Source of the DNA: Planctomycetaceae bacterium
GTDB lineage: Bacteria; Planctomycetota; Planctomycetia; Planctomycetales; Planctomycetaceae
DNA length: 26,569 nt
Assembly: GCA_035514115.1 (NCBI GenBank)
Contig: DATKBI010000089.1
Coordinates: 1 to 26,569, forward strand
Reading direction: 5' to 3'
The notes beneath the pieces were generated by a model that worked only from the letters and a program-made list of their open reading frames with translations, did no database searches and had not been told where the DNA came from. Below are positions 4,383 to 26,569 of this stretch, piece by piece. The position numbers and the translations under genes were made by a program. How positions within the stretch are numbered: the stretch's first letter is position 1; each line of letters opens with the position of its first letter.

Positions 4383-5714
4383 TCAATCGTTCCGCAGCTT
4401 CAGGTTCATCTCACCCAGCCGTGTGCGGATTTCGTTGAGCGAGGTCACGCCGAAGTTTCGAGTGCCCAACAGCTCGTCGGGGGTCTTCTGGACCAGCTCG
4501 CCGACCGTCGTGAGGCCCAGCCGGGTCATGCACTTCCGCGCCCGGACCGAGAGGTTCAGATCGTTGACCGACCTGGTCAACACGGCCTGCTCCTGCGGCG
4601 AGAGGTCGCGCTCGAAGTACGCCGGCAGCGGCCGCGGTTTTCCCAGGTTCTGACCGATCTGCAAGTCGTGCTCGGCCATCAGGTCGCGGACTTCCTTGAG
4701 CGACGTCTCGCCGAAGTTCTTGCCGTTGAGCAATTCCTGCTCGCCGATCCGCGTCAGGTCGCCGAGCGTGTGGATGTTCATTCCCTGCAGGCAGTTGCGG
4801 CTGCGGACCGTCAGCTCGAAATCAGTGATCGGGCGGCTGAGCAGTTGCTCGAGCCGCGCCTGCCGGCGGGCTGACTCGTCGTCGTAGTACATGTCGCCGG
4901 CCGCCTCGATGTCCCGCAGGTACAGCCGCGCCCGGGCGTGCGTCGGGTCGTGCTCGAGGATCTTGCGGAAACAGTAGGCGGACGCCGCGTAGTTCTCCTG
5001 GTCTTCGTAGAGCAGCCCCAGGTTGAGCAGCGACCCCAGATACAACGGCGGGCGGGCCAGCGACCTCTCGTACAGCCGGATCGCAATCTCGTCGTTGCCC
5101 CGCAGCGCGTTCTCGGCGGCCAGCCGGAACAGCGCGCGCGAGTGGCGGGGATCCATGTCGACGGCCCGCTCGAAATACTCGATGGCACCGAACGCATCGC
5201 CCCGGTCGGCCAGGATGCAGCCCATCTGGTACGAATACTCGGCCCGGCTGGCGGCCTGGCGCGAGACGCTTCGCAGCACCTGCTCGGCCTCGTCGATTCG
5301 GCCCTGCGCCCGGATGGCGCCCGCGCGGCGAAGGGCGCACTCGACCGGATCGTAGCCGTACCCGGCCGCGTCGGCGAACTGCCCCTCGGCCTCGTCGTGG
5401 CGCTCCAGGGCCGTCAGCACCAGCCCGTGGTAGAAACACGCCGGACCGTTCTCGTTGGTGACCCACGACAGGTACTCGTCGGCCCGCCGGTGCTGGCCCA
5501 GCAGGTAGCAGGCGATGCCCGCGCGGGTCAGCAACTCCGGCGACGGCCGGTCGGTCGAGGCGATTTCGTCTTCGAGAGCCCGCAACTCCTGCCGGGCCTC
5601 GGAAAGCTGGGGACCGGAGAGAAGCCGGGTCAGCCGCTGGACGTCGCCCGCGGCGAGGGCGGGGTCTTCCCTCAGCAGTTCCCGCACGTTCGACGGTTCG
5701 GTCGCGGTGGCCAT
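4383..5714 (-). CDS. TPR-repeat protein with two C-terminal RNA polymerase alpha-subunit CTD-like helix-hairpin-helix domains
   Basis: The N-terminal half has TPR-like repeats. The C-terminus holds two copies of an alpha-CTD signature: ITDFELTVRSRNCLQGMNIHTLGDLTRIGEQELLNGKNFGETSLKEV and NDLNLSVRARKCMTRLGLTTVGELVQKTPDELLGTRNFGVTSLNEI. Compare E. coli RpoA DLELTVRSANCLK...NLGKKSLTEI. I trimmed the start to the ATG at 5714 (MATATEPSNV), which has an AGGAG site 7 nt upstream. The ORF-track version 4383-6149 has an implausible Arg/Gly-rich extension. Confidence 0.8.
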   Translation of the reverse strand: MATATEPSNVRELLREDPALAAGDVQRLTRLLSGPQLSEARQELRALEDEIASTDRPSPELLTRAGIACYLLGQHRRADEYLSWVTNENGPACFYHGLVLTALERHDEAEGQFADAAGYGYDPVECALRRAGAIRAQGRIDEAEQVLRSVSRQAASRAEYSYQMGCILADRGDAFGAIEYFERAVDMDPRHSRALFRLAAENALRGNDEIAIRLYERSLARPPLYLGSLLNLGLLYEDQENYAASAYCFRKILEHDPTHARARLYLRDIEAAGDMYYDDESARRQARLEQLLSRPITDFELTVRSRNCLQGMNIHTLGDLTRIGEQELLNGKNFGETSLKEVRDLMAEHDLQIGQNLGKPRPLPAYFERDLSPQEQAVLTRSVNDLNLSVRARKCMTRLGLTTVGELVQKTPDELLGTRNFGVTSLNEIRTRLGEMNLKLRND

Positions 5715-5763
5715 GCGCGCTCCTGGAAGAATGGAACCGGGCCTGGGGAGACAGGGGGCTTGA

Positions 5764-5791
5764 AGTATAGTCAGTCGGCCGGCTTCTGCAA
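5764..5791 (-). promoter_or_regulatory. sigma70-like promoter, TTGCAG-16-TATACT on the minus strand, upstream of the TPR/alpha-CTD gene
   Basis: Reverse-complementing 5764-5791 gives TTGCAG, a 16-nt spacer and TATACT. It lies about 50 nt upstream of the ATG at 5714. Confidence 0.3.
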
Positions 5792-5797
5792 ACGATC

Positions 5798-7081
5798 CTA
5801 CTGCCCCAGCAGGTTGGCCAGCGGCCGCAACGACCGGAAGTGCTCGCAGATGATCTTCGCAATCCCCAGCACGGGCACGGCAATCAGCACGCCGCCAATG
5901 CCCCACATCCACCCCCACACGACCAGCGACAGAAACACCAGGACCGGGCTCAGGCTCATCGAACGCCCGAGCAGCATCGGAGTAATCAGATTGCCCTCGA
6001 TCGAGTTGATGACGAAATACGACAGCGGCGCCAGCGCCGCGTACGCCACCGAGTCGAACTGAATCAGGGCGGCGACGCCCACGGCGATGGCCCCCACCAG
6101 CGCGCCCAGGTAGGGGACAAAGTTGAGCGCCGCCGCCATCACGCCCCACAACAGCGGGTTGGGCAGCCCGAGCAGCCCCATCACCGAGCCGATCACGATC
6201 CCCAGACAGGCGTTGATGACTGTGATCGTGCCCAGGTATCGCGAAATGCCCTGCTCGATGTTCCGCACCAGTTCGACGATGCCACGCTTGTCGCGGAACG
6301 TGGGCCGGAGTTGGAGGATCTTGTTGAGGAAGGAATCCCCCAAAGCCAGCAGCAGGTACAACAGGACCACGACGATCACCACCCCCGCCGAGACCTCTCC
6401 CGTCGAAGTCAGCACGGTCTGCGTCAGGCTCGGTTGCCTGAACTCCACGACCTGGACCTCAGGCTCAGGATCGGCCTCGACCTCGGGCGACGTGGCTGAG
6501 CCGCCGGCTCCGGCCGCGGGCGCCGGGGCGGCGATTTGCTGGACTTGCTTCGAGGCCCGCTCGATGTTGCGGATCCGCTGGAACACGTACCAGAACTTGA
6601 CTTCGACCTGTCTGAGGTTGTCCGGGATCTCTTCGAACCAAGTCGTGGCCGGGCTGGCCAGCACGTAGATCCCCGTGCCGGCCGTCACCAGCAGGCCAGA
6701 CACAACCACCGCGGCCCCGGCCAGCGCCGGCACGCGCCGCCGCTGCATCCACCGCACCATCGGCCGAAACAGGAAATACAGGATGCAGGACAGAATGATC
6801 GGAAACAGCAGCGATCGGCCGAGGTAGACAGTGTAGATGACCGCCAGCGTCGCCAGAATCGTGAGCGCGACGGGGCGATGCCGGGGACCGTAGACCGCCG
6901 GCCGCCGCTTCGGCCACGGCTCAAAATCCGGAGGGCTCGGCGCGTCCCGTCCGTTCCCCGCCTCTGCCGGCAATGCGACGGCCGGCGCGCTCGGCGGCGG
7001 CGCCGGCGGAGCCGCTCCGCTGCCACTGTCACCGCTCGCTGGCTCGGAGCGTCGAACTGAAGGCTGCGTACGAGCGGGCAT
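5798..7081 (-). CDS. AI-2E family transporter (PerM/YhhT/TqsA-like permease)
   Basis: It is a multi-TM protein with the pattern LNFVPYLGALVGAIAVGVAALIQF...SPVLVFLSLVVWGWMWGIGGVLIAVPV characteristic of the AI-2E/UPF0118 family. A Pro/Ala-rich N-terminal extension precedes the first TM. Confidence 0.85.
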   Translation of the reverse strand: MPARTQPSVRRSEPASGDSGSGAAPPAPPPSAPAVALPAEAGNGRDAPSPPDFEPWPKRRPAVYGPRHRPVALTILATLAVIYTVYLGRSLLFPIILSCILYFLFRPMVRWMQRRRVPALAGAAVVVSGLLVTAGTGIYVLASPATTWFEEIPDNLRQVEVKFWYVFQRIRNIERASKQVQQIAAPAPAAGAGGSATSPEVEADPEPEVQVVEFRQPSLTQTVLTSTGEVSAGVVIVVVLLYLLLALGDSFLNKILQLRPTFRDKRGIVELVRNIEQGISRYLGTITVINACLGIVIGSVMGLLGLPNPLLWGVMAAALNFVPYLGALVGAIAVGVAALIQFDSVAYAALAPLSYFVINSIEGNLITPMLLGRSMSLSPVLVFLSLVVWGWMWGIGGVLIAVPVLGIAKIICEHFRSLRPLANLLGQ

Positions 7082-7419: not shown

Positions 7420-7869
7420 TTACACGCGCTCCCGTGTGCGGCGGCTGCCGCTGCGGAGCACACTCTTGATCCACGTCAGGTTCTGTGAAAACTCGTCCCG
7501 TGAGCGCTCGAAGACGGCAAACGTCGTGCGGATTGTCCGCCAGGCGAACCACCCCAGCACGCCGCTGACCGCAACCCCGATCGCCGCGGCGATCAGCAGC
7601 GACGCCCACAGGGGCAGTCCCGTCAAGGCGATGAGCCAGGCCAGACCCAGCAACAGGACGGGAAAGCTGGACAGCAGGAGGACCACCCCGACGACGCCCA
7701 GCACGAGCGGCCGCAGAGCCCTGTTCCGCGCTTCGCGCAGGTCCACGAGCAACAGCCGGCCCTGCAATTCGCCCAGAGTCAGAACGTCGTGCGCGAAGTC
7801 CCCCACGTTCAGCCGCAGCGCCGTGCCGGCCTTTTGTCCGCGCCCGTTTACCGTCGCTTGATCAGCCAT
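7420..7869 (-). CDS. phage-holin-family / YqjE-like (DUF1469) inner-membrane protein
   Basis: It has two hydrophobic helices (VLGVVGVVLLLSSFPVLLLGLAWLIALTG and LIAAAIGVAVSGVLGWFAW). It follows a DUF883 gene in the same order as E. coli yqjD-yqjE. A GGGAG ribosome-binding site is present. Confidence 0.65.
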   Translation of the reverse strand: MADQATVNGRGQKAGTALRLNVGDFAHDVLTLGELQGRLLLVDLREARNRALRPLVLGVVGVVLLLSSFPVLLLGLAWLIALTGLPLWASLLIAAAIGVAVSGVLGWFAWRTIRTTFAVFERSRDEFSQNLTWIKSVLRSGSRRTRERV

Positions 7870-10718: not shown

Positions 10719-13538
10719 ATGAGAGCATTTCCGCCAGCCCTCCCCGGATTCACGCTCGCCGATGATGCGGAGTGTGTCCTCGACTCGGTCCGGGATGCGC
10801 TGCTCGTGCTCGACCGCGAGCTGCGGATCGTCTGGGCCAACCGCTCCTTCTACCGCACGTTTCCGACCACGCCCGAACAGACGCTCGGGCAGTACCTGTA
10901 CGAATTCCGCGACGGCGAATGGAACATTCCCCGGCTGCGGACGCTGCTGGAGAACGTGCTTCCTCGCGACGCGGAGTTCGAGGACTTCGAAGTCGACCAG
11001 AACTTCCGCGACGTCGGCAGCCGCACGATGCTCTTGAACGCCCGCTGCCTGCGAGCCGCGGCCGCCGCCTGCCCCGCCGGCCCGGCGCCCGACTGCCAGT
11101 TCGTGCTGCTGGTCATCAACGACATCAGCGAGCGCCGTCGCAGCGAGGTGCAGAAGGCCCGGCTGGCGGCGCTCGTGGAGAGTTCGCCCGACGCGATCAT
11201 CATCCAGACGCTGGCCGGCACGATCACCGACTGGAATTCCGGCGCCGAGCGGGCCTACGGCTACACGGCCAACGAGGCGGTCGGGCAGCACATCTCGCTG
11301 ATCATGCCCGACGGACGCGAGGCCGAGTGCGCCGACATCCGCGCGCGGCTCGCCCAGGGCGAGCGGCTGGAGCAGTTCGAGACCGTCCGCGTCCGCAAGG
11401 ACGGCCGCCACGTGCACGCCTCGCTGACGATCTCGCCCATCCGCAATTCGCTGGCCGAGATCACGCGGATTGCCACGATTGAACGGGACGTCACCCGCCG
11501 CATCCAGATCGAAGACGAGCTCCGCGTCGCCATGGAGCGCGCCGAAGCCGGGAGCCGCGCGCAGGCCGAGTTCCTGACCAACGTCAGCCACGAGCTCCGC
11601 ACGCCGATGAACGCCATCATCGGGATGACCGACCTGGCCCTCGACGAGGATCTGTCCGCCGAAGTCCGCGACTATCTGGAAACGGCCCGCGGCTCGGCCG
11701 AGGTGCTCCTGGAGCTGCTCAACGAGGTGCTCGACTTTTCCAAGCTCGAGTCGGGCGAGTTCGAGCTGGATGCCGAGCTGTTCAGCCTCAGCGAGCTGCT
11801 CGAAGCCACCCTCAAGGCCCTGGCCCTCAAGGCCTACGAGAAGGGCCTGGAGCTGGCCTGCGACCTGGCCCCGGGCATTCCCGACCGGCTGATCGGCGAC
11901 CCCTTGCGGCTGCGGCAGATCGTGACCAACCTGGCCGGCAACGCGATCAAGTTCACGCACCAGGGCGAGATTCTCATCAGCGTCGAGCCGATGGCCCTGC
12001 TCGAGGAGGAGATTCGCCTCAAGTTCTCCGTCCGCGACAGCGGGATCGGCATTCCCAAGGAGGACCAGCAGCGCGTGTTCCAGCCGTTCACGCAGGTCGA
12101 CTCCTCGATCACGCGGAACTACTCCGGGACCGGACTGGGACTGGCGATCTCGACGCAGCTCATCAACCGCATGGGCGGGCGGATCTGGCTCGACAGCGAA
12201 GTCGGCCAGGGCAGCACGTTCCACTTCACGGCCCAGTTCGGGTTGACCGCCGACGCCCCGCAGTCCGACGCGGCGCTCGCCGCGGAGCACGTCGAGGACC
12301 TCCGCGGGCTGCCGGTCCTGGTCGTGGACGACAACGAGACCAGCCGCCGCATCGTCGAACGCTGCCTGAGCAACTGGTCGATGGAGCCGGTCGCCGTCGC
12401 CGATGGCCGGACCGCGCTGGAAGCCATGCGCGACGCGGCCCGCAGCGGCCGCCGCTTTCCGCTGGTCATTCTCGACGCCTTGATGCCCGAGATGGACGGC
12501 TTTATGCTCGCCGACCAGATCCGCCAGGATCCGGCGCTCGCCGAAGCCACGATCCTCATGCTCTCCTCGGCCGATCGCCAGGCCTTCCGCGAGCGCTGCC
12601 GGGACCTGCCGATCCGGGCCTTTCTCGAAAAACCCGTCACGCAGTCGGACCTGCTCGACTCGATCGTGACCGCGCTGGGGGGGGCCCTGCCAGAGGAGCC
12701 GCGGCGCGAGAGCGACCGCGACGAGTTTCCGCGCGGGGAGCCGCTGTCACTGCTGGTCGTCGAAGACACGCCCGCCAACCAGAAGGTCGTCGTGCGGATG
12801 CTCGAGCGCCGCGGCCATGCCGTGCAGGTCGCCCACAACGGACGCGAGGCGATCGACCTGCTCTCGCAGTGCGAGTTCGACCTGGTGCTGATGGACGTCC
12901 AGATGCCCATCATGGACGGCTTCCAGGCGACGGCGGCCATCCGCGCGATGCGCGACGAGCAGTTCCGAAACGTCCCGATCGTTGCCATGACCGCCCACGC
13001 CATGAAGGGCGACCGCGAACGCTGCCTGGCCGCCGGCATGGACGCCTACATCGCCAAGCCGATCAACGCCCGGCGGCTGATCCGGATCGTCGAACGGCTC
13101 GCCGCCGGCAGCCGCTTCACTCTGGCCGCGGCCGGCGATTCGATGACCTGGGATTCCGAGACGCCGCTCCCTCTGAACTCTCGCCCGCCCGGCGAGGCCC
13201 CGCCCATCGACGTGGCGAAGGCCCTGAAGCGGCTCGATGGCGACCGGAATCTGCTGACGGACATGGCCGGGTTCTTCAACGAAGATGCCCCGGAGCTGCT
13301 GCGGAAGATCGAACTCTCTCTGGAGCGGGGCGACGCGCAGTGCGTGCAGCGCTCGGCCCACAGCCTCAAGGGCCTCGCCGCCAACTTCAACGCCGACCGG
13401 GCCGTCGCCGCCGCCTTCGACCTCGAACAGCTCGGCGAATCCGGCGACCTGTCGCACGCCGTCGTGATGTACCGCCGTCTGCGCCGCGAGGTGCAGCGCG
13501 TGATCGGCGCGCTGGAGCAGCTCGTCGCGCAGCCCTGA
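10719..13538 (+). CDS. PAS-domain hybrid sensor histidine kinase with two receiver domains and a C-terminal Hpt domain
   Basis: It has two PAS/PAC regions. HisKA is FLTNVSHELRTPMNAIIGMTDL. HATPase_c shows LRQIVTNLAGNAIKFT, DSGIGI and GTGLGLAIS. REC1 is LVVDDNETSRR...ILDALMPEMDG. REC2 is LLVVEDTPANQ...DLVLMDVQMPIMDG...AKPI. Hpt is HSLKGLAANFNA. Confidence 0.9.
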   Translation: MRAFPPALPGFTLADDAECVLDSVRDALLVLDRELRIVWANRSFYRTFPTTPEQTLGQYLYEFRDGEWNIPRLRTLLENVLPRDAEFEDFEVDQNFRDVGSRTMLLNARCLRAAAAACPAGPAPDCQFVLLVINDISERRRSEVQKARLAALVESSPDAIIIQTLAGTITDWNSGAERAYGYTANEAVGQHISLIMPDGREAECADIRARLAQGERLEQFETVRVRKDGRHVHASLTISPIRNSLAEITRIATIERDVTRRIQIEDELRVAMERAEAGSRAQAEFLTNVSHELRTPMNAIIGMTDLALDEDLSAEVRDYLETARGSAEVLLELLNEVLDFSKLESGEFELDAELFSLSELLEATLKALALKAYEKGLELACDLAPGIPDRLIGDPLRLRQIVTNLAGNAIKFTHQGEILISVEPMALLEEEIRLKFSVRDSGIGIPKEDQQRVFQPFTQVDSSITRNYSGTGLGLAISTQLINRMGGRIWLDSEVGQGSTFHFTAQFGLTADAPQSDAALAAEHVEDLRGLPVLVVDDNETSRRIVERCLSNWSMEPVAVADGRTALEAMRDAARSGRRFPLVILDALMPEMDGFMLADQIRQDPALAEATILMLSSADRQAFRERCRDLPIRAFLEKPVTQSDLLDSIVTALGGALPEEPRRESDRDEFPRGEPLSLLVVEDTPANQKVVVRMLERRGHAVQVAHNGREAIDLLSQCEFDLVLMDVQMPIMDGFQATAAIRAMRDEQFRNVPIVAMTAHAMKGDRERCLAAGMDAYIAKPINARRLIRIVERLAAGSRFTLAAAGDSMTWDSETPLPLNSRPPGEAPPIDVAKALKRLDGDRNLLTDMAGFFNEDAPELLRKIELSLERGDAQCVQRSAHSLKGLAANFNADRAVAAAFDLEQLGESGDLSHAVVMYRRLRREVQRVIGALEQLVAQP

Positions 13539-15553: not shown

Positions 15554-17680
15554 ATGGTGAGTGAACAATCGCTGCTCGAGCAGATCGCCCCGCCCGATCG
15601 CGTCAAGTCCCGCAGCCACCCGACGAACTCGTCGCGGCTGCTCCAGGGCCTGATGTCGCTGTCGCGGCGCGCTGAAGCGGCCAACGACCGCGACAGCGAG
15701 GGTCCGCACTCCCTCGCCGGTGCGATCTCGCGCAGCGTGCTCCGCAGCCTGCTCGCGGCGCTTCAATTCCGCGACGTCAGCACCGTCGAACACGCCCGCC
15801 GCACGGCCCTGCTGGCCAGCGGCGTCGCCCAGCGGCTCCGCTGGGACCACCGCGAGATCAAACGGCTCGAAGCGGCGGCGCTCCTGCACGACATCGGCAA
15901 GATCGGCGTCCCTGACAATATCCTCTTCAAGCCCGGCCCGCTCAGCACCGACGAGGCCGAGTTGATGGCCCTCCACCACCACACGGGCATCGACGTGCTC
16001 CAGGCCTGCCACGTCGATTCCGAAGTCCTGGAGATCATCCACCAGGCGCACCGCTTCTATGACGGCGTCGGCGACGTGTTCCGCGGCACCGGCCAGAGCG
16101 TCCACCTCGGCGCCCGCATCCTGGCCGTGGCCGACGCCTACGACTCGCTCAGCAACGACCAGGTCTATCGCCGCGCCAAGTCGCACCGCCAGGTCATGGA
16201 GATCCTCACCGAGGCCTCCGGAACGCGCTTCGACGGCAACGTCGTGGCCACCCTGGGCCGCTGGCTGGAAATCGAGGGCCTGCCCCACGGTCCGGGCGGT
16301 CACGAGCCGGAGGCGTACATCGGGCCGGACGACGCCGCCGAAGCCGGACAGCTCTGCCATATCTTTTCCTACCTGTACGTTCTCGAAAGCCTCTACGACG
16401 GCTTCTACCTGGTCGACAGCGACCTGCGGTTCATCGTCTGGAACCAGTCGGTCGAGTCGCTCCTGGGCCGGCCCGCGTCGGACATGCGGGGACAGGCCTG
16501 GACGAGCCGGCTGCTGGGGCTGGCCGACCGCAACGACCGCCAGCTCCCCGACGACCGTTGCCCGCTCAAGCGGGTGATCGCCGACGGCCGGCCGACCACG
16601 TCCATCCTCAAGCTCCAGCACGCCGACGGCCACTGGGTCGAGGTCGAGGCGCAGTCGATGCCGCTGCTGGACGGCGACGGCCGCTTGCAGGGCGTGGCCG
16701 AGATTCTTCGCGACGTCAACCGCACGACCCGCCGGCCCCACGAGTTCCGCGAGCTGAAGCTCGCGGCGACCCGCGACGCCCTGACGATGCTCGCCAATCG
16801 CGGCGAGCTGGAGACGCAGCTCGCCGCCCTCGTGAACGAAGCCGCCCGGCGGACCGACGCCGAGCCGTTCAGCGTAATCTTCGCCGATCTCGACTTCTTC
16901 AAGACCATCAACGACAGCTACGGACACACGACGGGCGACCGCGTGCTGGTCGAAGCCGCCCGGCTGTTTCAGAAGGAGACGTACTCCGGCGAGCTGGTCT
17001 GCCGCTACGGCGGCGAAGAGTTCGTGATCCTCTGCCCGACCACCCGGCTCGAAGACGCGCAGCGCCGGGCCGAGCGGCTGCGGGTCGTGCTGTCCCGCTC
17101 GTCGCTGGGCGGGCTGAAGGACTTCAAGGTCACCGCGTCGTTCGGCGTGGCGGAGATCGAGCCCGGAGACTCCGTCGAGAGCGTTCTCCGCCGGGCGGAC
17201 AAGGCGCTGTACATGGCCAAGCAGAACGGACGCAACCGCACGTGCACGCTGACGACGGCGGACGTCGCCGCGGGAAAAGCCGATGAGGCCCCCGGCGACG
17301 AGAACCCGAACCCCTTCGAGTTCCACGCCACGCTGCGCGTCTGCCTCGCGGCCGACATGATCGTGTACAAGCTGGGCGGCTTTGTCAGCGATCAGAAGGC
17401 GCGCCTGGTCTCGGTCACGCCGACGCGGGCCATCGTCCGCGTGGGCAGCGCCGGCCTGCTGCCGTTCTGGGGCGCGGCCGCCGAACGCCAGCCCGTCGAA
17501 GTCACGATGACCTTCGACCAGCACGAAGCCCCCACCTCTCCCGGACGCGCCGTCGTCTCCAACACCGTCAAAATGAACGTCCGCGTCCGCCCCCGCGGCT
17601 GGGTCCGAAAGCCCGACGTGTTCGGCGCCCGCGCCCGGCACGTCGTCAAGGAGCTCCGGTCGTACTTCGTGGCCGACTGA
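15554..17680 (+). CDS. multidomain c-di-GMP signalling protein with an HD domain, a PAS domain, a GGDEF (GGEEF) diguanylate cyclase and an unknown C-terminal domain
   Basis: The HD motif is AALLHDIGKIGVPD, with no GYP. The PAS motif is FYLVDSDLRFIVWNQSVESLLG. The GGDEF region shows FADLDFFKTINDSYGHTTGD and the active site RYGGEEF. The last roughly 130 aa match nothing I recognise. Confidence 0.88.
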   Translation: MVSEQSLLEQIAPPDRVKSRSHPTNSSRLLQGLMSLSRRAEAANDRDSEGPHSLAGAISRSVLRSLLAALQFRDVSTVEHARRTALLASGVAQRLRWDHREIKRLEAAALLHDIGKIGVPDNILFKPGPLSTDEAELMALHHHTGIDVLQACHVDSEVLEIIHQAHRFYDGVGDVFRGTGQSVHLGARILAVADAYDSLSNDQVYRRAKSHRQVMEILTEASGTRFDGNVVATLGRWLEIEGLPHGPGGHEPEAYIGPDDAAEAGQLCHIFSYLYVLESLYDGFYLVDSDLRFIVWNQSVESLLGRPASDMRGQAWTSRLLGLADRNDRQLPDDRCPLKRVIADGRPTTSILKLQHADGHWVEVEAQSMPLLDGDGRLQGVAEILRDVNRTTRRPHEFRELKLAATRDALTMLANRGELETQLAALVNEAARRTDAEPFSVIFADLDFFKTINDSYGHTTGDRVLVEAARLFQKETYSGELVCRYGGEEFVILCPTTRLEDAQRRAERLRVVLSRSSLGGLKDFKVTASFGVAEIEPGDSVESVLRRADKALYMAKQNGRNRTCTLTTADVAAGKADEAPGDENPNPFEFHATLRVCLAADMIVYKLGGFVSDQKARLVSVTPTRAIVRVGSAGLLPFWGAAAERQPVEVTMTFDQHEAPTSPGRAVVSNTVKMNVRVRPRGWVRKPDVFGARARHVVKELRSYFVAD

Positions 17681-21408: not shown

Positions 21409-22080
21409 ATGCAGGAGTTCATTGACGCCTGTTTCAGGGGACCGACGCTGCCGGCGAGCATCCTGCTGATCGTCGCCTGCGTGTACTGGGTGTTCGCGCT
21501 GCTCGGGGCCCTGGACCTCGATCTGTTCGACCTCGATCTGGACGTGGACGTCGATGCGGACGCGCCCGGCCATTCGCCGGCCGACATCGGCTTCGTCGCC
21601 CTGCGGTTCCTGAACCTGGGGCGGGTGCCGCTGATGATCTGGGCGAGCGTGTTTGCCCTGGCGTTCTGGTCGGCTTCGATGCTGATTGACGCGACTCGCA
21701 CCTACGCGGGCGGCGGCGAGATCGCGCTGGCGATCGCCCGCAACCTTGGACTGGCCCTCGTGGCGGCCAAGCTGCTGACGCAGCCGCTGCGGGGCAAGTT
21801 CGACGTCCACGAGCCGAACCCCGCCGAGGACTTGATCGGACGGACGTGTGTGATTACCACCACCGAGGCGACGGACCGCTTCGGCTGGGCGCAACTCGAA
21901 ACCGGCGCCTCGCCGCTGGCCCTCAGCGTGCGGGCGACCGACGGAAACCTGTCGAAAGGCGACGTGGCCGAGATCTGCGGCTACGACGCCGAACAACGAA
22001 TCTACCTGGTGAAGGCCGCCGGAAACGTCGAAGCCCGAATGACGAACGAAGCCCGAATCCCGAATGACGAAGGGCGCTGA
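21409..22080 (+). CDS. YqiJ-family (DUF1449, NfeD-like) inner-membrane protein, the usual partner of flotillin
   Basis: A TM helix is followed by an acidic DLDLFDLDLDVDVDAD linker, a second TM pair and a C-terminal NfeD-like beta region. It lies immediately upstream of a flotillin gene, as in E. coli yqiJK. Confidence 0.7.
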   Translation: MQEFIDACFRGPTLPASILLIVACVYWVFALLGALDLDLFDLDLDVDVDADAPGHSPADIGFVALRFLNLGRVPLMIWASVFALAFWSASMLIDATRTYAGGGEIALAIARNLGLALVAAKLLTQPLRGKFDVHEPNPAEDLIGRTCVITTTEATDRFGWAQLETGASPLALSVRATDGNLSKGDVAEICGYDAEQRIYLVKAAGNVEARMTNEARIPNDEGR

Positions 22081-22177
22081 GCCGCCCGGCTCGCGCCACC
22101 CGACCCCGACCCCGACCCCGGCCGCACCTTCGGGCTTCGGACTTCGTCATTCTTTCGTCATTCGAGCTTCGTCATTC
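22037..22177. repeat. array of the 10-mer GAATGACGAA (2 forward copies) and its complement TTCGTCATTC (3 copies), flanking a (CCCGAC)3 tract
   Basis: The forward copies are at 22037-22046 and 22062-22071, inside the 3' end of the yqiJ-like gene. The reverse copies are at 22143-22152, 22154-22163 and 22168-22177. (CCCGAC)3 is at about 22099-22118. Together they form a long imperfect inverted repeat just upstream of the flotillin ribosome-binding site. Confidence 0.6.
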
Positions 22178-22206
22178 GTTATTGACGAGTGTGAAAGGAA
22201 CCTCCG

Positions 22207-24246
22207 ATGCTGCTCGCTGCTGACATCCTGGGCGTCGCCGTGCCGACGTTCGTCGCCATCATCGTGGGCGTCGTGCTCGTCCTGCTGGTGATCGCCTCCT
22301 CGTTCTCCAAGTTCTACCGCAAGGTCGGCCCCGAGGAGGCGATGGTCGTCACCGGCGTCGGCGGCCTGAAGGTCGGCACCGGCACGGGCATCTGGGTGAT
22401 CCCCGTCTTCCAGCGCTTCGAGCAGATGGACCTCTCGGTCAAGCGGATCGAGATCGCCCGCCGCGGCGAAGCCGGCCTGATCTGCAAGGACAACATCCGC
22501 GCCGACATCGAGGTCGCGTTCTTCGTCCGCGTCAACAACACCAAGGAGGATATTCTCCAGGTCGCCCAGTCGCTCGGCTGCCGCCGGGCCTCCGACCCGC
22601 AGGCCCTGAACGAGCTGTTCAACGCCAAGTTCTCCGAGGCCTTGAAGACCGTCGGCAAGCACTTCGACTTCACCGAGCTGTACAACCAGCGCGAGCAGTT
22701 CAAGGAGCAGATCCTCAAAGTCATCGGCACGGACCTCAACGGCTACAAGCTCGACGACTGCGCGATCGACTATCTCGAGCAGACGCCGATCGAGAAGCTC
22801 AACCCGATGAACATCCTCGACGCCGAGGGCATCAAGAAAATCACCGAGCTGACGTCGCGCGAGAAAGTCCAGGAAAACCATTTCACCCGCGAACGCGAGA
22901 AAACCATCAAGAAGCAGGACGTCGAGGCCGCCGAGACGATTTTCGAACTCGAAAAGCAGCGCGTCGAGGCCGAGCAGAAACAGCTTCGCGAGATCGCCGC
23001 CATCACCTCCCGCGAACAGGCCGAGGCGGCGAAGGTCCAGGAAGAAGAGCGGCTCCGCTCCGAGCGGGCGCGGATCATCACCGAAGAGGAAGTCGCCGTC
23101 GCCGAAGAGAACAAGCTGCGTCAGGTCATCGTCGCGCGCAAGAGCAAAGAGCGCACCGACGCGGTCGAATCCGAGCGCGTTGAAAAGGACCGTCTGCTCG
23201 AAGTCACCGAACGCGAGCGCGTCTTCGGCCTCGCGCAGATTGAAAAGGACAAGGCCATCGAACTCCAGCGCCGCGATATCCAGGAGGTGATTCGCGAACG
23301 CGTGATTGTCGAGCGCGCCGTGGTCGAGGAACAGGAGCGGATCAAAGACACTCACGAGTTCGCCGCCGCCGATCGGCTGAAACAGGTGACCGTCACCAGG
23401 GCCGAGATGTCGGCGCAGGAATCGCTGGTCAAGGAGGTCAAGGCCGCCGAAGCGTCGCGTCAGGCCGCCGACCTGCTGGCCCAGCAGGTCGTGATCGAGG
23501 CCGAAGCGCAGCGGTCGGCCGCCGAGAAGCAGACGATCTCCAAGAAGATGCTGGCCGAGGCGCATCAGGCGGAATCGGCCGCGCCGGGTCTGGCCGAGGC
23601 GCAGGTCCTGGCGGCGCGGGCCGACGCGGTCGAGAAGCACGGCACCGCCGAGGCCGAGGTCATGCGGCTGAAGTTCACGGCGGAGGCCACCGGCATCGAG
23701 GCCAAGGCCGAGGCGATGAAGCTGTTCGACGGCGTGGGCCGCGAGCACGAGGAGTTCAAGCTGCGGCTCAACAAGGACAAGGACATCGAGATCGCGGCCA
23801 TCGAGGCGCAGCGGAACATCGCCCGCGACCAGTCGGAGATCGTCTCGGCCGCGCTCCAGAGCGCGCGGATCGATATCGTGGGCGGCGAGACGGCGTTCTT
23901 CGACAAGATCGTGGATTCGATCAAAGGCGGGAAGGCCGTGGACCGGTTCGTGCAGAGCAGCCAGGTCCTCTCGGACGTCAAGGAGACGTTCTTCGACGGC
24001 AACGGCGACCCGGACTACTTCCGCAAGCAGCTCAAGCGGTTCGTGTCGCACTTCGGGATGAATTTCGAGGACATCAAGGACCTGTCGGTCTCGGCGCTGA
24101 TCGGCCGGATGATCCTGGAGTCGTCGAGCGAGGAGACGACCAGTGACCTCACGCGGATCCTGCGGATGGTCAAGGGCGCGGGCGTGGCCGACAAGCGCGT
24201 GGCGTCGCTGGGGCTGGGGCTGGCGGAGACGGCGGACAAGAACTGA
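22207..24246 (+). CDS. flotillin-family SPFH/band-7 protein (YqiK-like)
   Basis: The N-terminal TM is VPTFVAIIVGVVLVLLVIA. The SPFH domain shows EAMVVTGVGGLKV...SVKRIEIARRGEAGLICKDNIRADIEVAFFVRV. It has a long Glu/Arg/Ala-rich coiled-coil flotillin region. It is 679 aa. Confidence 0.9.
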   Translation: MLLAADILGVAVPTFVAIIVGVVLVLLVIASSFSKFYRKVGPEEAMVVTGVGGLKVGTGTGIWVIPVFQRFEQMDLSVKRIEIARRGEAGLICKDNIRADIEVAFFVRVNNTKEDILQVAQSLGCRRASDPQALNELFNAKFSEALKTVGKHFDFTELYNQREQFKEQILKVIGTDLNGYKLDDCAIDYLEQTPIEKLNPMNILDAEGIKKITELTSREKVQENHFTREREKTIKKQDVEAAETIFELEKQRVEAEQKQLREIAAITSREQAEAAKVQEEERLRSERARIITEEEVAVAEENKLRQVIVARKSKERTDAVESERVEKDRLLEVTERERVFGLAQIEKDKAIELQRRDIQEVIRERVIVERAVVEEQERIKDTHEFAAADRLKQVTVTRAEMSAQESLVKEVKAAEASRQAADLLAQQVVIEAEAQRSAAEKQTISKKMLAEAHQAESAAPGLAEAQVLAARADAVEKHGTAEAEVMRLKFTAEATGIEAKAEAMKLFDGVGREHEEFKLRLNKDKDIEIAAIEAQRNIARDQSEIVSAALQSARIDIVGGETAFFDKIVDSIKGGKAVDRFVQSSQVLSDVKETFFDGNGDPDYFRKQLKRFVSHFGMNFEDIKDLSVSALIGRMILESSSEETTSDLTRILRMVKGAGVADKRVASLGLGLAETADKN

Positions 24247-24259
24247 TCGTGTCGGAACA

Positions 24260-26569
24260 TGGCTCAGGCAGCAAACAGCACCGGCCCGCAGGACCAGGCC
24301 GCGCCGTCCGAGCCGGCGCTCGACAGCGGGACGTATGAGATCATCCGCAACCGCCTGCGGGGGCATGCGGCCGAGCTGCGCGAGCGGCTCGCGCAACTCA
24401 ACGCGGCCCGCAAGGATGTGTTCGGGTCGATCGATACGGCGCTGATCGCGACCGAGCGCGTCACCACGGCGCATAACTGCGTGCCGCGGGACATGCTGGC
24501 CGTCGGGAACCGGTTCCTGTTCGGCTACAACGTCCACTTCGGCCTGAAGACCGAGCGGGACCTGGCGGACGTGTTTTCGGTGTACGAGTTCCGCGAGAAC
24601 TCGTTTCATGAACTGCCGCTGGACCTGATCCGCGACGCGGCGTTCGAGAAGCACTTCCAGGACGTGTACCGGTACTACAAGGACGCCGTGTTCGCGAAGT
24701 TTTTCGCGCGCGGGCCGCACCTGTACATCGTCTTCCGCGTCGGCAAGACGCCGGCCGACATCAAGACGTTCAAATGGCTCGTCGAAGGCGACGGGCTGCG
24801 GTATCTCGACAACCGCAGCGATCACGAGGTGCGGTATCCGCCGCAGCACGAGTTCGAGTGGACGCGCACGCACCGCGACATGCACTACGCGGGGCCGCAC
24901 CCGCACGTCTCGATCGAGGACCGGCTGTTCGTCGAGACCGTGGGCGGCGACCTGACGATCAAGGTCGAGAACAACACCGACTCGGGCGAGGGCATCTACG
25001 CCGAGCCGGTGGACGACCCGGACCAGACGCTGGATGACGCCGAGATCTATTATGCGTCCGTCGGGAACATCATCCTGCTCAAGGTGCGGCCCTACCAGGA
25101 GCAGCGGTTCCGGTACTTCGTCTACAACGAAAAGATCCGGCGGGCGGTGCGGCTGGATGCGATCGAGCACGCCTGCGTGCTGCTGCCGGGAGACCACGGG
25201 CTGATCTTCTCCAACGGCTATTACCTGCAGACCGGCGAGCACAAGACGTTCGAGAGCGGCCTGACGGACATGCAGTTCTCGCGGCGGATCGCCGCGCCGA
25301 ACGGAGAGGACTACCTGTACGTCTTTTATCACCGCGCGTCGGGCGTCTCTACGCTGCTGGGTTACAACGTCATCGCGCAGCGGGTCGAAACGCCGGTCAT
25401 TTGCCACGGCTTCACGCTGTTCAAAGGCGGCGAGCTGATCCTGTTCAAGGCGCAGCCGGAGCCGCAGAGGCACCACGCGATCCAGATCTGGCAGACGCCC
25501 TACGTCGGCGAAGACTACGTCCCGCACGTCACGAGCGACAGCTATCTGTTCAAGGTCGGCAACCGCGACATCGTGCGGGCGATGGCCGAGTGCCACGAAG
25601 TGCTGGCGCTGATCGACAAGGACGACACGTACTCGGGCCTGTACGTGGACCTGGTCAAGGCGGCCGGCGACATCATCGACAGCTACTTCTGGATCGACCG
25701 GCCGGAAGCGTTCCGGATCCAGGAGCCGCTGGCGCAGATCCGGGACGCGGCGGCGGCGGCGATCAATGAGTTCGAGAAGGTCGTCCGCGTCCGCGAGAAC
25801 ACGGCGGCCGAGACGCGGCGCGTGACGGGCGAGGCGCGGAGCCTCCTGGCGGGCGCCGGACGCAAGCGGTACGAGGTGATTGGCGATTTTGTGGCGTCGC
25901 TGGCCGACCTGCGGCGGGTGCGGGGCGAGGTCATCGCGCTTAAGGACCTGCGGTACGTGGACCGCGGGCTGGTGGAGCGGGTCGAGGGCGAGGTCGCGGA
26001 GGCCTCCGAGCGGCTGGCGAAGCGGGCGGTCGAGTTTCTGCTGCGGCCGGATGCGCTCTGGCCGTATATCGAGCAGGTGCGGGCCGAGCAGGCGAAGATC
26101 GGCGGTCTTCAAAAGGTCACCGATGCCCGCCAGCTCGAAGAGGCGATCGCCGCCAGCGCCGCCGAACTGGAGATGCTCGTCGAGATTGTCTCGAACCTGG
26201 CGATCGACGACGCCACGCAGCGGACGGTGATCATCGACAGCATCTCGGCGATCTTCACGGACATCAACCAGGCGCGGGCGGCGCTCCGGCGGAAGACGAA
26301 GGAGCTGGCGTCGGTCGAAGGCGTGGCCGAGTTCGGCTCGCAGTTGAAGCTCTTGAACCAGAGCGTCGTCAACTCTCTGGACGTGTGCGACACGCCGGAG
26401 AAGTGCGAGGAGTTCCTGACGCGGGTGATGATCCAGCTCGAGGAGCTGGAGGGCCGGTTCGCCGAGTTCGACGAGTTCGTCGTGCAGCTCACCGAAAAGC
26501 GGGAGGAGGTCTACAACGCCTTCGACTCGAAGAAGCTGGCGCTGATCGAGGCGCGGAACAAGCGGGCCG
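24260..26569 (+). CDS. large conserved hypothetical protein (more than 770 aa visible, C-terminus outside the window), co-operonic with flotillin
   Basis: The ATG sits 13 nt after the flotillin stop. The frame stays open for 770 codons to the window end with coding-like high-GC third positions. The N-terminal roughly 450 aa are beta-rich (YLYVFYHRASGVSTLLGYNVIAQRVETPVICHGFTLFKGGELILFKAQPEP), followed by a helical, coiled-coil-like region. There is no Walker A motif in the visible part. It is absent from the ORF track only because no stop falls in the window. Confidence 0.7.

Follow-up and report, generated by a model that had tools for sequence, protein, structure and literature searches.

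A planctomycete flotillin locus with a truncated propeller-bearing ATPase gene belongs to a widespread three-gene membrane module

The closest described relatives of the locus considered here are the operons reported by Ravi et al. (mSystems 2024, PMC11237479; preprint 2020), whose treatment of CesT/Tir-PspA operons includes a YqiJ/YuaF protein with three transmembrane (TM) segments. In section 19 and Table S3 of that paper the gene for this protein is followed by one encoding a Band-7, coiled-coil and flotillin protein and then by one whose product combines a β-propeller, a coiled coil and an AAA-ATPase, the whole occurring with or without a CesT/Tir-PspA dyad. Abbreviated operons, comprising flotillin, YqiJ/YuaF and sometimes the ATPase, are described in the same account as more widely distributed and are suggested to work with PspA encoded elsewhere, while an envelope-stress role is proposed for the PspA-linked operons on the basis of comparative genomics. 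Here we analyse a comparable set of three genes lying at the end of a 26,569-nucleotide (nt) stretch of DNA from a Planctomycetaceae bacterium (contig DATKBI010000089.1), this stretch, which is the entire contig, being referred to below as the window.

The locus represents an unremarkable orthologue of a widely distributed module consisting of a YqiJ/NfeD-like protein with three TM segments, a YqiK-type flotillin and a cytoplasmic ATPase of around 1750 amino acids (aa). The three architectures and their order are the same as in the operons of Ravi et al., and the domain string given in their Table S3 for Dokdonia donghaensis (ANH61663.1) matches. The YqiJ/YuaF-type protein, the flotillin and the propeller with its coiled coil are each present in the window itself, and the AAA+ part is inferred from orthologues. 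A first-pass annotation, made from the sequence of the window, had held that a giant soluble protein coupled to a flotillin was not a described arrangement and that the protein resembled no family; the first statement is superseded by the 2024 publication and the second by clear matches to Pfam families. The module is thus already in print, the family is present in Pfam and NCBI annotation, and the window contributes one more truncated orthologue.

What the present analysis adds is, in the first place, the extent of the linkage. One genome per species was scanned, yielding at least 583 matching stretches, of which 80 loci were kept, with two more loci looked up directly; gene order was tested by tblastn with the three proteins of the window and by all-against-all clustering of open reading frames (ORFs), and counts were made on the 65 loci having at least 3.2 kb of upstream DNA. 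These span Planctomycetota, Bacteroidota, Verrucomicrobiota, Desulfobacterota, Omnitrophota and Sumerlaeia. The flotillin gene lies upstream of the ATPase gene, in the same order and on the same strand, in 61 of the 65, and the YqiJ gene is also present in 57. Distant copies of the ATPase, only 33-41% identical, behave in the same way: flotillin is directly upstream in all six, found in Pseudomonas fluorescens pQBR103, the actinomycetes Streptomyces and Nonomuraea, Deinococcus, Proteus and Vibrio. The triad is also intact on megaplasmids. The adjacency of ATPase and flotillin, recurring in 61/65 related and 6/6 distant loci, is not a matter of chance, and it is close to certain that the parts are what they appear to be and are functionally linked. 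The view taken in the first-pass annotation of the trio as a functional unit, and of the large protein as a soluble and uncharacterised partner of the flotillin/YqiJ pair, is therefore well borne out, the conservation of neighbourhood being very strong and extending over some nine phyla. No conserved fourth, downstream gene was found by clustering of 83 loci.

The three genes of the window are co-directional, as translation of the three plus-strand ORFs confirms. A start at position 24,260 had been assigned to the third, but this is the wrong frame, which is full of stops; the correct ATG is at 24,259, from which 770 codons run to 26,568 and are still open at the contig end. The identical database protein, P0001, is likewise partial and comes from a contig of 26,569 nt, so that flanking DNA offers no way to complete the gene. 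No other in-frame start occurs between the flotillin stop codon and this ATG. The two are separated by 12 nt, not 13 as first given, and share a frame, while the earlier figure of 126 nt for the gap between the first and second genes stands. Medians of 6 nt and 134 nt were obtained for the gaps across the loci. In the window the 12 nt between flotillin and ATPase genes are too few to accommodate a promoter. A search for sigma-70-like promoters was negative and terminator-like matches did not exceed background, a result that is uninformative for a planctomycete.

The visible 770 residues match Pfam DUF3686 (PF12458) with an E value of 2.5e-194 (residues 39-477, covering the full profile, 1-448) and DUF7902 (PF25472) with an E value of 1.1e-26; neither this ORF nor the first of the three has an NCBIfam model. 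Searched exhaustively, 1.84 billion cluster representatives yielded 1071 clusters (50% identity) for the family at E ≤ 1e-3, of which 362 remain at E ≤ 1e-30. Listed orthologues are 52-72% identical to the window protein across phyla, rising to about 80% in the ATPase module. Since the protein homologue search listed only family fragments of at most 1341 aa, full lengths were taken from genome loci, where the 65 complete genes encode 1620-1906 aa, and from a representative library, where full-length members have approximately 1600-1930 aa. Complete orthologues contain a single AAA module according to Pfam, at around residues 1280-1420. The P-loop recorded as missing in the first-pass annotation is indeed missing from the visible 770 residues, because the AAA module, near residue 1290 in orthologues, lies past the contig end; as a property of the protein the absence is spurious and stems from the truncation, SPPGYGKTT being present in every one of the 68 full-length relatives.

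The visible part of the protein was modelled with AlphaFold (mean predicted local distance difference test score, pLDDT, 87.5). In the model an N-terminal helix (residues 23-55) is followed by approximately 28 strands (61-412) and then by helical bundles (429-769), in agreement with the earlier expectation of a β-rich N-terminal and a coiled-coil C-terminal half. Foldseek comparison of the N-terminal model with the PDB returned propellers only, namely WD40 proteins, CyRPA and the propeller of prolyl oligopeptidase, with TM-scores that are low and matches that are generic, since the query is multi-domain. The most conserved motif of the visible protein, GGDLTIKVEDNT, is inside the propeller. 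A PDB sequence search found no solved relative of the propeller and arm region.

Although the 68 full-length representatives are only 28-58% identical to the window protein in their N-terminal part, four motifs are essentially invariant among them: Walker A (SPPGYGKTT), Walker B (hhhDDIQH), sensor-1 (MAGNPYTE) and PDMLANRA. The conserved ATPase sequence, SPPGYGKTT ... YLDDIQH ... MAGNPYTESGEKFQIPDMLANRAD, has a MoxR-like layout. Walker B carries Asp-Asp, not Asp-Glu, in essentially all the representatives (at about residues 1345-1351 of the orthologue from locus L004, a region outside the window). The module was modelled on an orthologous C-terminal fragment, P0139 (pLDDT 76), and in this model it is structurally nearest to the MoxR-type ATPases CbbQ and NorQ, with a predicted MoxR-like AAA+ fold in which a β-hairpin lies between helix 3 and strand 4. 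Membership of the classical clade (Cdc48/Vps4/FtsH), as judged by greatest similarity to classical modules and lack of a pre-sensor-1 hairpin, was considered and rejected; in sequence comparisons the similarity to p97 is limited to some 40 residues around Walker A. In the operon descriptions of Ravi et al. no clade is stated for the ATPase.

Some irregular versions of the ATPase gene were also seen. Several genomes, two of them complete or nearly so, have a short gene (approximately 750-935 aa) or one that is divided between two ORFs which abut or overlap, such as a pair of 1292 and 484 aa or of 1245 and 436 aa (loci L001, 10001-15333, and L002, 10001-14997; also L036, L071 and L074); frameshift, pseudogenisation or assembly error may be responsible. 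One entry of the representative library, P0246, has an NfeD1b_N domain (residues 74-215) ahead of DUF3686 (498-970). This could be a physical fusion of NfeD and ATPase or an artefact of gene calling and, as a single unverified case, it is not used as evidence. In the window, an antisense ORF of 1321 aa (22,147-26,112, minus strand) spans the flotillin and ATPase genes. Comparable antisense ORFs cluster across 78 loci and no family evidence was obtained for this one, which most probably arises as a side effect of the GC-rich codons in the conserved gene opposite it; GC content in the window is approximately 62-74% in 1-kb segments.

The two upstream genes resemble the yqiJ-yqiK pair, as originally recognised. 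The second encodes a protein with an N-terminal TM segment, a Band_7 domain (E value 7e-10), a long coiled coil rich in Glu and Ala, and a conserved C-terminal region, and it aligns with Escherichia coli YqiK at 30% identity over 515 aa (BLASTP E value 4e-49), the homology running through the coiled coil. Its C-terminal region is about 90 aa longer than that of YqiK, and conservation extends over the entire length in 66 orthologues. Against the NCBIfam FloT equivalog model it scores 32.5 bits, the cut-off being 700, so that on sequence grounds it is to be considered a member of the flotillin family and not a FloT equivalog. A PDB sequence search found no solved relative of this flotillin.

The product of the first gene has three hydrophobic segments followed by a β-rich C-terminal tail or domain. 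It matches Pfam YqiJ_N above threshold (E value 6.4e-6; 26.8 bits, cut-off 23), as do 16 of 27 orthologues, while Pfam NfeD (PF01957) is matched by one of the 27 and not by the window protein. A profile of the orthologues has as its top PDB match the NfeD domain of Bacillus subtilis YuaF (2k14), this being weak (E value 0.043, positions 143-202). The end of the gene overlaps an imperfect palindrome of about 150 nt (22,024-22,176), composed of GAATGACGAA and TTCGTCATTC motifs with a central CCCGAC repeat, which covers the last 20 or so codons and most of the 126-nt gap. It is predicted to fold at -77.6 kcal/mol (z -5.35), and its motif is present in five copies there and essentially nowhere else in the window. 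Because the orthologues are without the palindrome-encoded C-terminal tail, and their gap at this point has a median of 6 nt, the element looks like an insertion of the repetitive extragenic palindrome or miniature inverted-repeat transposable element (REP/MITE) kind. It may attenuate or stabilise the transcript.

Table 1. Features of the three-gene locus, in window coordinates
Feature	Position	Strand	Basis
YqiJ/YuaF-type (NfeD-like) inner-membrane protein, 223 aa	21409..22080	+	Pfam YqiJ_N, orthologues
YqiJ_N membrane region, aa 18-93	21460..21687	+	Pfam
Putative NfeD-like OB-fold partner-binding domain, aa ~143-202	21835..22014	+	Weak profile match to YuaF 2k14; tentative
YqiK-type flotillin (SPFH) scaffold protein, 679 aa	22207..24246	+	Pfam Band_7, BLASTP to YqiK
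SPFH/Band_7 domain, aa 39-243	22321..22935	+	Pfam
DUF3686-DUF7902-AAA+ ATPase gene ('DNA repair ATPase' in NCBI), 5' 43%	24259..26569	+	Pfam DUF3686 and DUF7902; contig end cuts gene
β-propeller, aa 61-412, ~28 strands, probably seven blades	24439..25494	+	AlphaFold pLDDT ~90, Foldseek
Helical-bundle/coiled-coil arm, aa 429-770	25543..26568	+	Pfam, AlphaFold model
DUF7902, aa 598-682	26050-26304	+	Pfam

The surroundings of the triad vary with lineage. CesT/Tir and PspA genes are found immediately upstream in 16-18 Bacteroidota loci, which also contain a divergently transcribed helix-turn-helix (HTH_3) and Peptidase_S24 regulator of the LexA-like, self-cleaving type (e.g. L002, 3110-5332). These loci match the full layout of Ravi et al.: HTH and S24, CesT/Tir, PspA, YqiJ, flotillin and ATPase. 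On pQBR103 the triad comes after a cluster of YjfI, PspA and glutathionylspermidine synthase genes. The window differs from the full form in being without both the CesT/Tir-PspA dyad and the HTH-S24 regulator, and is therefore the 'abbreviated' three-gene form. The combination of HTH-S24 regulator and CesT/Tir-PspA suggests stress-inducible control in Bacteroidota, to which there is no counterpart in the planctomycete window.

Taken together, these data are compatible with the triad being a membrane module in which the ATPase remodels a flotillin/YqiJ assembly during envelope stress, a reading to which we assign a probability of roughly 0.5. Flotillin, anchored by its N-terminal TM segment, would oligomerise with YqiJ at the inner membrane, forming an SPFH dome or scaffold on the cytoplasmic side; human flotillin reportedly assembles as a 44-mer dome (PMC13000311). 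The propeller and arm would bring the ATPase to this assembly and, like the MoxR-clade proteins CbbQ, NorQ and midasin, the ATPase would spend ATP on remodelling a folded assembly, not on threading a polypeptide. During an envelope-stress response it might thereby open, disassemble or reset the flotillin/YqiJ complex, and likewise PspA polymers at loci that also encode PspA. An active remodelling engine is favoured by the essentially invariant ATPase motifs, by the modelled β-hairpin and by the conserved sequence, in which no aromatic pore-loop motif is seen. Precedents for the coupling of SPFH assemblies to AAA+ machines are HflK/C-FtsH and prohibitin-m-AAA, and an SPFH protein of B. subtilis, YdjI, reportedly connects PspA to the membrane (PMC8581546). 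The components of the proposal deserve different degrees of belief. A role at the membrane or in envelope stress is somewhat probable, and the PspA linkage in the Bacteroidota and pQBR103 loci supports it. That the flotillin assembly is the direct target of the ATPase is put forward tentatively, and the more specific idea that the ATPase is dedicated to the ATP-driven remodelling of flotillin domes in bacteria, and of PspA polymers wherever PspA is encoded alongside, is more speculative again. Were it true, the ATPase would have no known precedent as an energy-consuming machine in control of a bacterial flotillin microdomain, and it would correspond in function to partners of membrane scaffolds of the Vps4 or FtsH type.

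Several observations weigh against this interpretation. The AAA module, at about residue 1290, is beyond the window; the Asp-Asp of Walker B, in place of the usual Asp-Glu, may mean that hydrolysis is slow or regulated; and MoxR ATPases normally pair with a VWA partner, whereas no conserved VWA/MIDAS gene was present in the 83 clustered loci or in the annotations of five inspected neighbourhoods. No PspA, CesT or obvious stress regulator is among the annotated ORFs of the window. In four of the 65 loci there is no flotillin within 10 kb, so that the ATPase can be encoded apart; in the three of these that were inspected the upstream genes are unrelated and oppositely oriented. Lastly, a literature search found no experimental paper on any member of the ATPase family.

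The alternative that fares best, though we consider it unlikely, is that flotillin and YqiJ form a platform, as in HflK/C-FtsH, on which the ATPase would deal with damaged membrane proteins gathered in the microdomain, whether by extraction, unfolding or chaperoning, while leaving the scaffold untouched. The neighbourhood evidence serves this reading and the remodelling of the flotillin/YqiJ assembly identically; SPFH cages around AAA+ proteases are established, and a β-propeller is plausible as a substrate-binding module. In Staphylococcus aureus, flotillin microdomains are reported to stabilise unfolded proteins (PMC11222466). However, the AAA module is nearest to MoxR, CbbQ and NorQ, not to unfoldases, the conserved block that follows Walker A shows no aromatic-hydrophobic-Gly pore loop, and no protease domain or gene is conserved in the neighbourhood.

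In a second alternative, of lower probability still, the ATPase would be a functional analogue of Vps4, disassembling or recycling PspA that is located by means of the flotillin/YqiJ platform and encoded elsewhere when absent locally. The position of CesT/Tir-PspA immediately upstream of the triad in the Bacteroidota loci, and of PspA on pQBR103, is in favour of this, as are the partnership with distant PspA suggested by Ravi et al. for abbreviated operons and the statement in a 2025 review (PMC7619361) that no Vps4-like ATPase regulating the assembly of PspA, an ESCRT-III protein, is known in bacteria. Against these must be set the failure to find PspA in the Planctomycetota, Verrucomicrobiota, Streptomyces and Deinococcus loci, the identity of the invariant partner, which is flotillin and not PspA, and the placement of the ATPase outside the Vps4/classical clade.

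Among the roles floated in the first-pass annotation for a flotillin client or effector, membrane stress or remodelling is the best current guess and agrees with Ravi et al.; defence, the remaining one, is very improbable. An anti-phage or abortive-infection module, with a membrane scaffold and a large NTPase sensing infection, would be in keeping with the frequency of propeller or coiled-coil sensors on large NTPases of defence systems and with the presence of some copies on megaplasmids, but the sole PADLOC match, to LmuB, is faint (E value 0.018), lies over the coiled coil and is not meaningful, and tblastn gave no matches in 50,697 phage records. Furthermore, the triad has the same composition as the rest of the contig and is surrounded there by genes for housekeeping or signalling, no nuclease, TIR or pore-forming effector is conserved nearby, and the cross-phylum conservation of the ATPase quoted above is unlike that of fast-evolving defence genes. 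A function in DNA repair, finally, can hardly be credited, since it derives from names inherited through Pfam (where DUF3686 is described as 'ATPase involved in DNA repair') and NCBI (where relatives are called 'DNA repair ATPase') and from weak RuvB_N Pfam matches confined to the P-loop region, while Pfam detected no DNA-binding or nuclease domain in the window protein or its orthologues, the conserved partners are two membrane proteins, a literature search found no paper backing the name, and the modelled module has its nearest structural counterparts among the chaperone-like MoxR ATPases and not in RuvB or SMC.

Elsewhere in the window, the genes upstream of the triad encode a prolyl oligopeptidase, a protein with HD (HD_5), PAS and GGDEF domains (15,554-17,680, plus strand) that is likely to be a cyclic-di-GMP signalling enzyme, ProC, and a hybrid histidine kinase (10,719-13,538) with two receiver stretches and an Hpt domain; NqrA is also present. 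An unusual architecture is found in a 588-aa protein (4383-6149, minus strand) in which TPR repeats are followed by two C-terminal copies of the RNA polymerase α-subunit C-terminal domain (E value 7.6e-41). A small Holin-X/Phage_holin_3_6 protein (7420-7869, minus strand; E value 7e-16) is encoded next to an AI-2E family transporter gene (5798-7081), and no other phage genes were seen in the window.

The window itself is of modest weight, while the module as a whole is a good experimental target. The function of bacterial flotillins and the regulation of their assembly are still debated, and an ATPase that is encoded almost always directly downstream of flotillin, with invariant catalytic motifs, offers a concrete experimental handle on the former. 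Besides the size of the linkage, the new elements are the MoxR-like, as opposed to classical, nature predicted for the ATPase and the finding that its 'DNA repair' name has no basis.

Comparison with better-known systems places the module more precisely. In E. coli yqiJ-yqiK and B. subtilis yuaF-floT a membrane NfeD-like gene is likewise positioned upstream of flotillin. The window differs from E. coli K-12, where yqiK is followed by sibD/ibsD and not by an ATPase gene, and its flotillin, the conserved C-terminus of which is extended, is some 125 aa longer overall than YqiK. HflK/C-FtsH and prohibitin-m-AAA both couple an SPFH scaffold to a membrane AAA+ machine as is proposed here, the resemblance being analogous and not homologous: FtsH is a classical-clade, membrane-anchored AAA+ protease in a periplasmic cage, whereas the present ATPase is soluble, of about 1750 aa, MoxR-like in its model and without a protease domain. 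The MoxR proteins CbbQ, NorQ and RavA are of approximately 270-500 aa and have a VWA/MIDAS partner; in the family described here the corresponding module is located around residue 1290, within a giant protein that also has a propeller and a helical arm, is 11-13% identical to them and has Asp-Asp in Walker B. With Vps4/ESCRT-III the module might share a role, the ATP-driven recycling of a membrane-bound polymer, and some lineages encode PspA, a homologue of ESCRT-III, alongside it; Vps4, however, belongs to another AAA+ clade, the ATPase is without an MIT domain, and PspA stands outside the conserved core.

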